Source: Chloroflexota bacterium (lineage in GTDB: Bacteria > Chloroflexota > Dehalococcoidia > SM23-28-2 > RBG-16-64-32). From it: a stretch of 24,830 bases of DNA. Numbering within the stretch: position 1 is the first letter of the stretch; every line of letters begins with the position of its first letter. Of the stretch, positions 8,200 to 22,991 are shown piece by piece. Location of the stretch: NCBI GenBank assembly GCA_022563285.1, contig JADFNQ010000001.1:1-24830 (forward strand), in the 5' to 3' direction. Below the pieces are notes generated by a model that was not told the origin of the DNA, did no database searches, and saw only the letters and a program-made list of their open reading frames with translations. The position numbers were made by a program, and so were the translations under genes.

Positions 8200-9090
8200 A
8201 TGAAGCTCGCCGTGCACAACGCCCAGGGCAAGCGGGTGCGCCAGATCACGGTGGACGATACTGTCTTCGGGATCGTGCCCAACGGCGCCGTGCTCCACCA
8301 GGCGTTCGTCGCTCAGCGCGCCAATCAGCGGCGGGGCAGCGCCAGCACCAAGTCCCGGGGCGAGGTTCAAGGCAGCACCCGCAAGATCCGCAGCCAGAAG
8401 TACACCGGCCGCGCCCGACAGGGGAGCAACCGCTCGCCCGTGCGGGTCGGCGGTGGCGTCGCTTTCGGGCCCCGGCCCCGCAGCTACCGCCAGGCCCTGC
8501 CCAAGAAGATGAGGCGGCTGGCGATCCGCTCCGCCCTATCGGGCAAGGTGGCGGACGGTCAGCTACACGTCGTCGACAAGATAGGCTTCAAGCGGCCGCG
8601 CACTAAGGACGTGATCCGTATCCTGAACAACGTGGGCATTGAGCGCTCCGCGCTCATCGTTACCGGCGAGCCGGACCGCTCCGTTCTGATCAGCGCCCGC
8701 AACCGCCCAAAGACGAAGGTTCTGCCCGCCGCCTACCTCAATGTAGTCGACATGCTCACGTATCGTGACCTTCTGCTGACGGAGGGGGCGGTACGCGCTG
8801 TCGAGGGGCTGTGGGGTGCCGCAGCTGCGAAGCCCGCCGCAGCCGCCGAGGAGCCGACCGCAGAGGCGGAGACGCCGCCGGAGGAGAAACCGCGCCGCCG
8901 CCGGCCCGCGGCCGCAAAGGCGGCAGCCCCGGAGGAGGCGCCGGCGAAGCCAGCCCGCCGTGCGAGCCGGCCCAAGGCTGAGGCCGCAGAGAAGACGGCG
9001 GCAGGGGCCGGCGAGAAGCCCAAACCAGTGCGGCGCCGCTCGCGCAACAAACCTGCCCTGAGCCCCGCCGAAGGGAAGGAGGAGGAGTAG
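8200..9090 (+). CDS. rplD: 50S ribosomal protein L4 with a 90-aa low-complexity C-terminal extension
   Basis: ATG at 8200, 1 nt after the rplC stop. QKxTGRARQGS, GGGVAFGPRPR and PKKMRRLA motifs; core ends about 8817. Confidence 0.98.
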   Translation: MKLAVHNAQGKRVRQITVDDTVFGIVPNGAVLHQAFVAQRANQRRGSASTKSRGEVQGSTRKIRSQKYTGRARQGSNRSPVRVGGGVAFGPRPRSYRQALPKKMRRLAIRSALSGKVADGQLHVVDKIGFKRPRTKDVIRILNNVGIERSALIVTGEPDRSVLISARNRPKTKVLPAAYLNVVDMLTYRDLLLTEGAVRAVEGLWGAAAAKPAAAAEEPTAEAETPPEEKPRRRRPAAAKAAAPEEAPAKPARRASRPKAEAAEKTAAGAGEKPKPVRRRSRNKPALSPAEGKEEE

Positions 9091-10871: not shown

Positions 10872-11675
10872 ATGGGCCAGAAGGTACACCCCCACGGCTT
10901 CCGGCTGGGCTACATCTACGACTGGAGCGCCAAGTGGTTCGCCGGCCGTGATTACCCACAGCTCCTGCAGGAGGACCTGGCCATCCGCAAGACCATCAGC
11001 GATCTCCTTCCGGATGCCGGCATATCGTCTGTAGAGATAGAGCGCAACGCAAACCTGATCACGGTGGCTGTGAACACGGCGCGCCCGGGCATCGTCATCG
11101 GGCGCGGGGGCCAGCGGGTGGACGAGCTCCGGGCCGCCCTGGAGAAGGCGAGCGGTCGCAAGATCCGCGTCAACATCAACGAGATACGCATGCCGGAGGT
11201 AGACGCTGCCCTGGTCGCGCGCGCCGTGGCGGACCAGTTGGAGCGTAGGATCTCCCACCGGAGGGCTATCAAGCAGGCGATCGCCCGCGCCATGCAGCGC
11301 GGCGCCCAGGGCATCAAGATCAAGGTTGGAGGGCGTCTGGGCGGGTCCGATATGTCCCGCAAGGACCAGGGGATGGAGGGCCGCGTCCCGCTGCACACCA
11401 TCAGGGCGGACATAGACTACGGCACCGCGGAGGCCCGCACCGCCCTGGGGCGCATCGGCGTCAAGGTGTGGGTCTACAAGGGCGACCGCATTATCGAAGA
11501 GCCAGCGCAGGTGCAGCGCCGGCGTCCTCGGAAGGAAGGCGCCGAGGCGGGGGAGCAGCCGGAGGCGGGGGAGCAGCCGGAGGCCGCGGCCGAGGCGCCG
11601 GAGGTGGAAGCGGCGGTAGCCACAGAACCTGAGCCTAAACCTGAAGCTGAGGCTGAACCGGATGCTACAGCCTAA
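10872..11675 (+). CDS. rpsC: 30S ribosomal protein S3 with a ~62-aa C-terminal extension
   Basis: [35 protein letters not shown] and [10 protein letters not shown]. Confidence 0.99.
11544..11584 (+). repeat. Perfect 18-nt tandem duplication (EAGEQP x2) in the rpsC tail
   Basis: GAGGCGGGGGAGCAGCCG at 11544-11561 and 11562-11579, plus a partial GAGGC. Confidence 0.9.
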
Positions 11676-12090: not shown

Positions 12091-12318
12091 ATGGCGAAGA
12101 AGCTAAAGACGAAGACCCAAGACATACGCAAACTCTCGGACGAGGACCTGGTGAAGCAGCTGGAGGAGGCGCACCGCCGCCTGTTCTCCCTGCGACTCCA
12201 GAAGGAGACCCACCAGATCACCAACCATCGCGAGCTGCCGAGGGCGAAGCGTCTCATCGCGCGGCTGAAGACGATCCTGCGGCAGAGGCAGCTCGCAGGC
12301 ATCGGGGAGGCGCAGTAG
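12091..12318 (+). CDS. rpmC: 50S ribosomal protein L29
   Basis: Position after rplP; [16 protein letters not shown] and [11 protein letters not shown]. Confidence 0.95.
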
Positions 12319-12320
12319 GC

Positions 12321-13031
12321 ATGGGCCGGTTGGCTCACGGCGGTCACAAGACCCGCGAGGGCACGGTAGTGTCCGACAAGATGGACAAGACCGTCGTCGT
12401 GGCGGTGGCGAGCAGCGTCAGGCACCGTCTCTACAAGAAGATCGTCCGGCGACTTCGTCGCTACAAGGCCCACGACGAAACCAATGACGCCAAGCTGGGT
12501 GACCGTGTCCGCATCGTGGAGTCCCGGCCCTACTCCCGGCACAAGCGCTGGCAGCTCATCGAGGTGTTGATCCGCGCCGACCGGCCCGAAGTGGCCCCCG
12601 AGGAGATAGACTTGGAGCTCCTGGGCGAAGTGAAGGCAGAAGAGGAGGCCGCCCCGGAAGTCCCGGAGGTCGAGGCCGAACCGGAGGTCGCGGAGGAGCC
12701 GGAGGCGAAGGAGGAGCCGGAAGCGGAGGAGCCGGAGGCCGAGGCCGAACCGGAGGTCGCGGAGGAGCCGGAAGCGGAGAAGGAACCAGAAGCGGAGGAG
12801 GAGCCGGAGGCCGCGGCCAAACCGGAGGCGGAGGAGGAGCCAGAAGCGGAGGAGGAGCCGGAGGCGAAGGAGGAGCCGGAGGCGAAGGAGGAACCGGAGG
12901 TGGAGGAGGAGCCGGAAGCGAAGGAGGAGCCGGAGGCTGAGGCAGAAGTGGAGGCGGAACCGGAGGCAGCGGAGGAGCCGGAAGCCGAGGCAGAGGAAGC
13001 GGAAGGCGAGGAGAAGGAGGGATCATCGTGA
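12321..13031 (+). CDS. rpsQ: 30S ribosomal protein S17 with a 150-aa acidic repetitive C-terminal extension
   Basis: [33 protein letters not shown] and KRW core (aa 1-86), followed by xEEPEA repeats. Confidence 0.98.
12672..12986 (+). repeat. In-frame imperfect 18-nt minisatellite (about 17 units, consensus xEEPEA) in rpsQ
   Basis: Units such as GAGGAGGAGCCGGAGGCG. A 32-nt block is exactly duplicated at 12672 and 12741. Confidence 0.95.
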
Positions 13032-13396
13032 TCCAGTCCTCCTCTCGACTCCGTGTCGCCGATAACTCCGGCGCCCGGCAGGTGATGTGCATTAAGGTGC
13101 TCGGCGGCACCCGGCGCCGTTATGGCAGCGTGGGCGATATAATCGTCGCCTCCGTCAAGCATGCCGCCCCGGGCGGCGCCGTCAAGAAGGGGGACGTAGT
13201 GCGGGCCGTCGTCGTCCGCGTGGCGCAGACCTATCGGCGCGACGACGGCTCCTACATCCGATTCGACGACAATGCGGCTGTCATCCTGACCGATGCCTAC
13301 AACCCTCAGGGGACGCGCATCTTCGGGCCCGTGGCCCGCGAGCTTCGAGAGCGCAACTTCATGAAGATCGTCTCCCTGGCCCCGGAGGTGTTGTAG
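13028..13396 (+). CDS. rplN: 50S ribosomal protein L14
   Basis: GTGA overlap with rps[17 protein letters not shown] and [13 protein letters not shown]. Confidence 0.99.
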
Positions 13397-21734: not shown

Positions 21735-22991
21735 ATGCTAGAGTCTCAGGTTTATCAAGGTGTGCCTGCTGCGCCCGTTGTGGAGGAACCGTCCTACGAG
21801 CCTCAGATCGAAGTTGAGGATAGCACGGACAATTTTGCCCGCGTGATCGCGGCGCCGTTGCTGCCCGGCTTCGGCATCACGTTGGGGAACGCCCTCAGGC
21901 GCGTGCTCCTCAGCTCTCTTTCCGGGGCGGCGGTTACCTCCGTGCGCATCGAAGGGGTGCAGCACGATTTCTCAACCATCCCAAACATCAAGGAGGACAC
22001 CATAGAGTTCCTTCTGAACATCAAGGGGCTGCGCCTGCGGGCCGCCTCGGACCGGCCCGGTACGCTCATCCTTGAGGTCAGCGGCCGCGAGGGTGAGATC
22101 ACCGCCGCCGATCTCCAGGTTCCGGAGCACTACGAGGTGATGAACCCAGAGCTCCACCTGGCGACCATGGACTCGCCAAAGGGCCAGCTCCGGGTGGAGC
22201 TGAACGTTGAGCCCGGCCGCGGCTACGTTCCCGCCGGCCTGGCCGATGGTGTGCCCCTCGGCGTCATCCCCGTGGACGCCATTTTCTCGCCCGTGCGCAA
22301 GGTCAACTATAAGATCGGTCGAACGCGCGTTGGTCAGGAGACCAACTTTGACCGCCTTGAAATGGAGGTCTGGACCGACGGCACCGTCAGCGCCGTCGAT
22401 GCCGTCAGCAAAAGCGCCGAGATCATCATCGAGCAGTTCCAGCTGTTCGCTCACATGGGGCAGCCCCCTCTGCCGGTGGTGGAGCGCGGCCTGGGGGCAG
22501 GGGTTGTCCTCACGCCTGAGAAGTTCAACATGCCCATTGAGGACCTCAGCCTCTCCATGCGGGCCTACAACTGCCTGCGCCGCAGCGGTCTCATGACCGT
22601 GGGCAATGTGCTGGAGAAGAGCGAGGAGGAGCTTCTCTCCCTGCGCAACTTCGGTCGCAAGTCCTACGACGAGCTAAAGGACAAGCTGAACGAGTTGGGT
22701 CTGCTCCCTGTCGAGCCGGAGGAAGAGGTGATGGAGGCGCCGCCCTTGGAGGAGGGGGAGGGCCCCGTCCTGGCTCAGCGCCCGGCGGTGGAGGAAGCCG
22801 AAGCCCCCCCTGCTGTTGAACAGCCTCAGGAGGTGCGGGAGGAGGCGAAGAAGACGGAGGAAGCGGAGGCGCCTGCCAAGAAACAGGCAAAGGCCGCCAA
22901 GGTGGAGCCGTCCGCTGAGGATGACGAGGACGAAGTACCGGACTGGAAACGCAAACTGATGGAGATCACCGGTGGGGAGGACAGCGAGTAG
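21735..22991 (+). CDS. rpoA: DNA-directed RNA polymerase subunit alpha with a 95-aa C-terminal extension
   Basis: [28 protein letters not shown] and alpha-[14 protein letters not shown]...RNFGRKS. Confidence 0.99.

Follow-up and report, generated by a model that had tools for sequence, protein, structure and literature searches.

The window analysed here, a stretch of 24,830 nucleotides from contig JADFNQ010000001.1 of the metagenome-assembled genome (MAG) of an uncultured member of the class Dehalococcoidia (Chloroflexota) from marine sediment, contains on its forward strand an rpsQ open reading frame (12321-13031) that translates into a uS17 of 236 amino acids, nearly three times the usual size. 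S17 is a primary 16S rRNA-binding protein, universal, essential and early-binding in the 30S subunit, and its size is normally under tight constraint. The gene is preceded by rpmC (L29; 12091-12318, +) and followed by rplN (L14; 13028-13396, +), both identified by Pfam, the latter at full length (PF00238, E 1.1e-54); this is the position of rpsQ in the S10/spc cluster. The first 86 residues (12321-12578, +) constitute the core and carry a net charge of +13. Pfam Ribosomal_S17 (PF00366) matched aa 14-81 with an E value of 2.4e-27 and 95.3 bits (cut-off 25.9), and the two NCBIfam equivalog models for the protein, TIGR03635 (uS17_bact) and NF004123 (PRK05610), scored 104.7 and 108 against cut-offs of 88.7 and 74, respectively. 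The part alignable to S17 chains in the PDB covered aa 6-89. AlphaFold2 modelled the core as five strands (residues 11-21, 24-34, 41-51, 62-67 and 75-84) with pLDDT values of 91-96, and the five-stranded OB fold of S17 is present in this model. Because the Pfam and NCBIfam scores lie above the cut-offs, the gene sits between rpmC and rplN and the genome (a MAG that is 77% complete) gave a single S17 match, rpsQ of the window is, judged from its sequence, a genuine S17 gene and the only one detected in the MAG.

The remaining 150 residues (aa 87-236, linker included; nt 12579-13028) form a highly acidic tail. A script counted 72 Glu, 2 Asp, 8 Lys and 1 Arg, corresponding to a net charge of -65 or -0.43 per residue, together with 29 Ala and 21 Pro (14%); aromatic residues, Cys, His and Met are absent altogether. 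Ala and Glu make up 67% of the entire tail and 72% of the part after the linker (67 Glu and 28 Ala in 132 residues). The first-pass annotation, made from the sequence, had described an S17 almost tripled in length by a 150-aa acidic repeat tail, and the open reading frame, the Pfam core and the tail count agree with that description; its hand count of 72 Glu plus 2 Asp against 9 Lys/Arg is identical to that of the script, and the tail is indeed, at net -65, a tethered polyanion.

Most of the tail is encoded by a hypervariable repeat array (12636-12980, +) of 18-nt units that specify Glu-Pro-Ala-rich hexapeptides. Tandem Repeats Finder reported a period of 18 nt with 15.4 copies and 76% matches at 12663-12936, along with overlapping periods of 36 and 54 nt (scores of 225-269), the repeats overall spanning 12663-12990. 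A repeat search gave 17 in-register copies, most of them spaced by 18 nt, matching the initial estimate of about 17 hexapeptide repeats. At the protein level, 20 units of the tail end in PE[A/V], 13 of them in EPEA, and the consensus hexapeptide is [E/K/A]-E-E-P-E-A. The Glu/Ala/Pro stretch of about 130 residues after the linker is made of about 15-17 in-phase 18-nt units, a copy number that rests on a short-read metagenome assembly. Codon usage within the tail is skewed: CCG accounts for 17 of the 21 Pro codons (81%), compared with 35% in the other genes of the window, and GCG for 15 of the 29 Ala codons (52%, compared with 30%). This skew fits recent amplification of one founder unit.

The AlphaFold2 model gave the array pLDDT values below 50, compared with more than 90 for the core, and the tail is predicted to be disordered. 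Predicted disorder, high net charge and the lack of F, W, Y, C, M and H together give it the character of a polyanionic disordered tail. Searched alone, the tail had no Pfam match up to E = 1 and no NCBIfam match up to E = 0.01.

Between the core and the array lies a linker of 19 residues (aa 87-105; 12579-12635, +). Among 22 S17 sequences from the same family, six of its residues (A92, I96, D97, L98, G102 and E103) are invariant and three more (P89, V104 and K105) are each present in 21, a degree of conservation that equals that of the S17 core in the family. The initial 11 residues or so, with the pattern [ED]-V-A-E-x-x-P-x-E-[VI], are found throughout the class, even where no long tail follows, and a later segment of 10 residues is kept family-wide. 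Judged from these alignments, the linker is the most conserved part of the S17 extension and the repeats are the least conserved. A hydrophobic-acidic linker after the core had been noted initially and is present; it had been passed over as a short linker and not recognised as the most conserved part of the extension. In the AlphaFold2 model pLDDT drops across the linker from about 83 to 45-60, and residues 91-110 had values of about 45-50 when the core plus linker was modelled alone, so the linker is not predicted to fold by itself. In the models it looks like a segment that orders only upon binding. A scan of the genome gave no second copy of the linker motif besides S17, one further match being taken as a non-coding frame. 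In family f6 of the same order (L021, L022, L024 and L025), a different conserved acidic linker with an amphipathic-looking sequence, ALPEEEKAIIEEEVAEEVRELDEA, is present. Each family seems, at the level of sequence, to keep its own structured-looking segment ahead of the repeats.

The 3' end of rpsQ (12981-13031, +) is fixed. It contains the rplN Shine-Dalgarno (SD) sequence AAGGAGG (13014-13020) within the final S17 codons, and the rpsQ stop codon TGA (13029-13031) overlaps the GTG start of rplN at 13028 (GTGA, 4 nt). The 4-nt stop/start overlap is kept in nearly all relatives. On this arrangement rplN is predicted to be translationally coupled to rpsQ, and the proposal in the first-pass annotation of a real coding sequence coupled to rplN is borne out by the conserved overlap and the maintained frame. 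The G+C content of the tail by codon position (0.92/0.37/0.81) is frame-specific. The +1 frame of the array is open as well and would encode a poly-Arg/Ser/Lys tail; no such shifted tail frame occurred among the complete S17 sequences of relatives that were examined. Two minus-strand open reading frames (12530-13162 and 12556-13110) were rejected as genes; they are Ser/Gly- and Pro-rich frames that we read as mirror images of the repeats.

The assembled array is matched piece by piece by Logan contigs of independent runs, which overlap across it (12100-12712, 12674-12772 and 12743-13342) and show 0-6 differences; no public Logan contig spans it in full. The runs with matching sequence come from marine or other sediments, and no RNA data set is among those listed. 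Tail-bearing relatives include genomes assembled into one or two contigs (G012, G023, G031, G037, G150, G166, G193 and G246), so assembly artefacts do not generally account for long arrays. At least 968 S17 proteins of 129-413 aa are present in databases, and the S17 domain was found in all 120 among the matches listed. In two relatives (L022 from G033, and L034 from G267) runs of N, marking scaffold gaps, lie inside the S17 arrays, and in L034 the frame after the gap runs on into rplN. Such arrays can break short-read assemblies and give false S17-L14 fusions.

Comparison with close relatives revealed that the length of the array changes at the strain level. One close S17 variant (P0001) is identical over the core and linker (105/105) and has a tail that is 12 aa shorter with 15 substitutions; further close variants measure 209 and 155 aa. 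In two contigs whose flanks are about 99% identical, the arrays differ in length by 36 and 81 nt; in a third, with flanks 94-97% identical, the difference is 243 nt. All three indels preserve the frame. Logan contigs contributed two additional in-frame variants of -57 and +108 nt. The last 51 nt of rpsQ are 100% identical in the window and the three strain-level contigs despite the differing array lengths. S17 length thus differs 1.5-fold or more among near-identical strains and ranges from 174 to 238 aa across six genomes of the genus, with the reservation that these comparisons use short-read assemblies in which partial collapse of an array is possible. The in-frame indels between near-identical contigs indicate that the array behaves, as far as the assembled sequences tell, as a length-variable coding minisatellite (VNTR), a behaviour that had been suspected from the window alone. 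By the same comparisons it gains and loses repeats in frame, and its sequence and length change far faster than the core. The composition of the tail (30-50% Glu/Asp, less than 6% Lys/Arg and hardly any aromatic residues) and its reading frame are kept order-wide.

A survey of S17 length across Chloroflexota, as suggested in the first-pass annotation, placed the window's protein in a wider series. S17 was found in 40 of the 41 genomes searched in the order (among them that of the window), and every complete S17 extracted from the order has an acidic tail of 50-198 aa with a net charge of -11 to -68, in which Lys and Arg make up 6% or less and 0-3 residues are F, W, Y, C, M or H. The shortest of these tails are about 50 aa long (e.g. 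L026). Given such short tails within the order and the large strain-level variation, no particular length is needed. Other Dehalococcoidia families have tails of 142-300 aa built from repeats of their own, and low-GC members of the class have only 3-30 aa beyond the core. In MAGs of the Tepidiformaceae the acidic tails measure 44-54 aa. The tally for the class takes in the unpublished genome G255, on which none of the individual statements made here depends. In the phylum outside the class most S17 open frames are short, and in the genomes examined of Streptomyces, Clostridia, cyanobacteria and one Anaerolineae the protein stops one residue past the core. Judged from these genomes, the tail is a lineage-wide trait of many Dehalococcoidia; the feature initially presented for one genome is real, and it is not peculiar to that genome. 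Long tails were found only at a locus G+C of at least 0.56, and short ones at high G+C too, so high G+C is not sufficient. Tail length and locus G+C gave a Spearman rho of 0.375 in a hand-chosen sample that is uncorrected for kinship.

The C-terminal ends of the tails vary by genus (e.g. ...EGSS, ...EEES, ...QEGQG and ...EEPA). A conserved terminal peptide that would bind a partner, as in the factor-recruiting acidic tails of bL12 or the P-stalk, is thus absent. Where tail ends are identical within the species, the identity extends to the nucleotides and falls on the SD sequence and start of rplN. A contig labelled Nitrospinota bacterium (JAUXIQ010000006.1; L058) encodes an S17 with a Dehalococcoidia-like acidic extension of 17 aa, RPEVAVIGEELD...; either this contig has been binned wrongly or such extensions are also present outside Chloroflexota.

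A six-frame scan of the 1.45-Mb MAG identified the S17 tail as the longest acidic stretch, and further Glu-rich low-complexity stretches were found in S2, L19, L25, S3, RpoA, RpoC, NusA, FtsK, FtsY and GrpE. In the window itself, S3 has an acidic Glu/Pro/Ala C-terminal tail of about 55 aa (11510-11675, +), which holds a perfect 18-nt repeat of 2.3 copies (11544-11584; 100% matches in Tandem Repeats Finder) and overlaps the start of rplP by 14 nt. L4 (8200-9090, +) carries a mixed-charge C-terminal tail of about 95 aa that is rich in Ala, Glu, Pro, Lys and Arg and ends in KEEE; its final codons, GGAGGAGGAG, are the SD sequence of rplW. The true start of L4 is likely the ATG at 8200, which is preceded by GGGAGG, the mechanical ORF start (8146) lying further upstream. 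The alpha subunit of RNA polymerase (RpoA) has an acidic C-terminal extension of about 90 aa (22704-22991, +) that finishes in a non-repetitive, Trp-containing segment. On other contigs of the MAG (C174, C96, C24 and C232; loci L151, L155, L156 and L157), Pfam identified the hosts of acidic stretches as S2 (a C-terminal tail of about 115 aa), L25/TL5 (a low-complexity stretch of about 45 aa), NusA (about 50 aa near the C-terminal end) and RpoC (about 50 aa at the C-terminus). Two contig ends (C27:3-515, L153, and C164:2-292, L154) encode apparent L19 C-termini with differing acidic tails of 65-85 aa, L19 being confirmed by Pfam for C27 only and the C164 fragment being assigned by its C-terminal motif. 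The two L19 ends suggest that the MAG combines two strains or contains some contaminant sequence, and they point once more to tail hypervariability.

The reading that we favour, in which we place an even degree of confidence, is that a genuine rpsQ encodes a four-part protein whose tail is a slippage-variable, composition-selected polyanionic brush tethered to the 30S subunit. The first part would be the canonical uS17 OB-fold core, which binds 16S rRNA, and the second the 19-residue linker, with its first 11 residues or so shared by the class and the remaining segment by the family. The third part would be a disordered polyanion of about 115 residues made of Glu-Pro-Ala hexapeptide repeats, and the fourth the fixed C-terminal end, the codons of which double as the ribosome-binding site of rplN. 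The tail would grow and shrink through slippage, by gain and loss of repeats in frame. It would remain on assembled S17 and project from the 30S subunit as an extended, highly charged entropic and electrostatic brush, which might keep S17, a very basic protein, and the surface of the ribosome soluble and prevent non-specific contacts with RNA and protein. The lineage may then clothe its transcription and translation machinery in an acidic coat to which the S17 tail belongs. The roles that the first-pass annotation put forward for the tail (RNA mimic, built-in chaperone, solubility brush or cation buffer) are candidates between which the present data do not choose. As to origin, the purine-rich, Glu-coding SD segment at the 3' end of rpsQ might seed such tails, for which high genomic G+C would be permissive.

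The hypervariable length is as compatible with a tolerated by-product as with a brush, and the kept composition could reflect selection solely against harmful (basic or hydrophobic) residues. A near-neutral by-product is accordingly an explanation that we take seriously and consider possible, if somewhat unlikely. Slippage in the purine-rich, SD-bearing 3' end of rpsQ would produce a tail that the exposed C-terminus tolerates and that has no function of its own, selection merely purging frameshifts and basic or hydrophobic variants. Such a tail could well differ in length and sequence between near-identical contigs and be anywhere from 3 to 300 aa long within the class, short forms occurring even at high G+C. 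The restriction of long tails to high-G+C loci suggests mutational bias, the codon usage of the tail reflects amplification of a single unit and not optimisation, and L4 and RpoA likewise end in Glu-rich, SD-bearing codons. However, a tail without function would hardly be expected in every complete S17 of the order, across at least 25 genera, and 150 additional residues are costly on S17, since it is among the most abundant proteins. Like tails also recur on many proteins of the expression machinery, and the adjoining linker is conserved as much as the core.

The opposite charges within one chain, +13 in the core and -65 in the tail, raise another reading, that of a pre-assembly chaperone or RNA mimic. 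Here the polyanion would fold back onto the basic core and block aggregation and non-specific RNA binding until specific binding to 16S rRNA displaces it. Acidic tails autoinhibit nucleic-acid-binding domains in other proteins, an analogy that would suit a primary 16S-binding protein, and a conserved, amphipathic acidic linker follows the core directly. Yet the tail charge is about five-fold that of the core and its length is freely variable, neither of which is expected of a stoichiometric shield. AlphaFold2 gave no confident contact, with low pLDDT across linker and tail, and low-GC relatives do with 3-30 aa. We consider this reading rather improbable.

A more elaborate functional proposal, which we put forward as speculative and doubtful, makes linker and polyanion a two-part module. 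The linker, conserved to the same degree as the core and with equivalents specific to each family, would be a docking segment for rRNA or for a partner, or else the mark of a processing site. The polyanion, being tunable, would control the moment at which S17 joins 30S assembly, or the way in which ribosomes pack, hibernate or escape aggregation. As part of the same joint and doubtful proposal, the tails on S2, S3, L19, L25, RpoA, RpoC and NusA would form, together with that of S17, a selected acidic coat, and the setting would be that of slow-growing, energy-limited sediment cells.

That the linker is a processing site, the tail being a cleavable pro-region removed during or after assembly, has a parallel in the N-terminal extension of L27, which is removed by Prp in Firmicutes, and the strongly conserved 10-residue motif does lie exactly at the border of the hypervariable segment. 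We nevertheless judge it very improbable: the linker differs among the families of the class, the similar tails of other proteins (S2, S3, L19 and RpoA) lack a common motif, and the S17 motif is unique in the genome. Even less can be said for a role at the RNA level, in which an array of SD-like GGAGG motifs would act on the mRNA, for example by offering ribosomes a place to stand by or pause for rplN, while the encoded peptide would be incidental. The tail does contain 31 GGAGG motifs in 453 nt (69 per kb, compared with about 4 per kb elsewhere in the window), but the tails of relatives keep their acidity at densities that vary from 0 to 47 per kb (L030, 0; L019, 3), and we rejected the idea on that account as exceedingly unlikely; the share of GAG among Glu codons in the tail (75%) is, moreover, no higher than in other genes (82%). 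A mis-assembled array or an untranslated read-through, to which the lack of a public contig covering the full array and the N gaps in two relatives might point, has a negligible probability in view of the independent tiling contigs, the homologous tails in about 40 relatives (one-contig genomes included), the many long S17 proteins in databases, and a frame, stop/start overlap and codon-position G+C that fit coding sequence.

A whole class of bacteria puts up with, or exploits, an additional 100-300 acidic residues on S17 and has tails of a similar kind on other components of its expression machinery, which shows that the surface of the ribosome is open to far more remodelling than model organisms suggest. 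If functional, such tails would be a bacterial instance of disordered, charge-based coats on ribosomes and could bear on the solubility and assembly of ribosomes, and on dormancy, in slow-growing microbes of the subsurface. On the practical side, arrays that break or collapse in short-read assemblies and an inflated S17 length matter for pipelines that use uS17 as a marker gene. The most useful specifics are the well-conserved linker and the in-frame variation in length at the strain level.

Compared with canonical bacterial uS17 (for instance the 80-90-aa chains in the solved ribosomes of E. coli, B. subtilis and C. acnes), the protein of the window has the same OB core and the same position between rpmC and rplN. 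Its best match in the PDB, 8crx_Q, aligned across aa 9-86 with an E value of 1.6e-23. The canonical chains run only a few residues past the OB core, whereas the window's S17 adds 150. Thermus thermophilus uS17 (105 aa) also has a C-terminal extension past the core, the alignment ending at residue 82 of its chain; that extension is only about 23 aa long and has no acidic repeats. The C-terminal segment of Thermus uS17 is helical and basic. Homology between the linker and this extension was considered and dropped, as phmmer found no similarity between them: the Thermus alignment reaches no further than query residue 89, and those with the full set of S17 chains in the PDB end at query residues 83-90. 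The mitoribosomal uS17m (7pkq chain q, 220 aa) is similarly enlarged and has its OB core at residues 8-81, but it is organellar, and no homology to the window's tail was detected. Another 30S protein, bS6, ends in poly-Glu, a few Glu residues that are added post-translationally by RimK. The likeness is that a 30S protein has a run of Glu at its solvent-side C-terminus; the difference is that the roughly 130 residues of the window's tail are encoded by the gene.

Further parallels are found among low-complexity regions (LCRs). In bacterial ribosomal proteins, C-terminal LCRs rich in Ala and Glu are common and occupy the surface of the ribosome (Ntountoumi et al., 2019; PMC6821194), and the LCR-bearing proteins named in that study are S2, S16, L25, S3, S6, L3, L10, L17, L19, L21 and L31, with no occurrence of S17. 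With 72% Ala plus Glu after the linker, the window's tail falls within the main Ala/Glu class of that study (at least 70% A+E). It is C-terminal like the LCRs described there, and a position on the ribosome surface is presumed from its predicted disorder and the location of S17. S2, S3, L19 and L25, all on the published list, have acidic low-complexity stretches in this genome too. Compared with a typical LCR of that study, the tail is Pro-rich (14%), more acidic and much longer, and has a recognisable tandem repeat. In the C. acnes 70S map, a 100-aa C-terminal extension of uL4 is invisible and presumably disordered (PMC10085706). This resembles the case described here in being a lineage-specific C-terminal extension of about 100 aa on a core ribosomal protein, and the window's own L4 has its tail of about 95 aa; it differs in the protein and subunit concerned, and no acidic repeats were reported for it. 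Full-text literature searches returned no published description of an acidic S17 tail. The tail of S17 is an addition to the acidic C-terminal low-complexity tails already published for bacterial ribosomal proteins.
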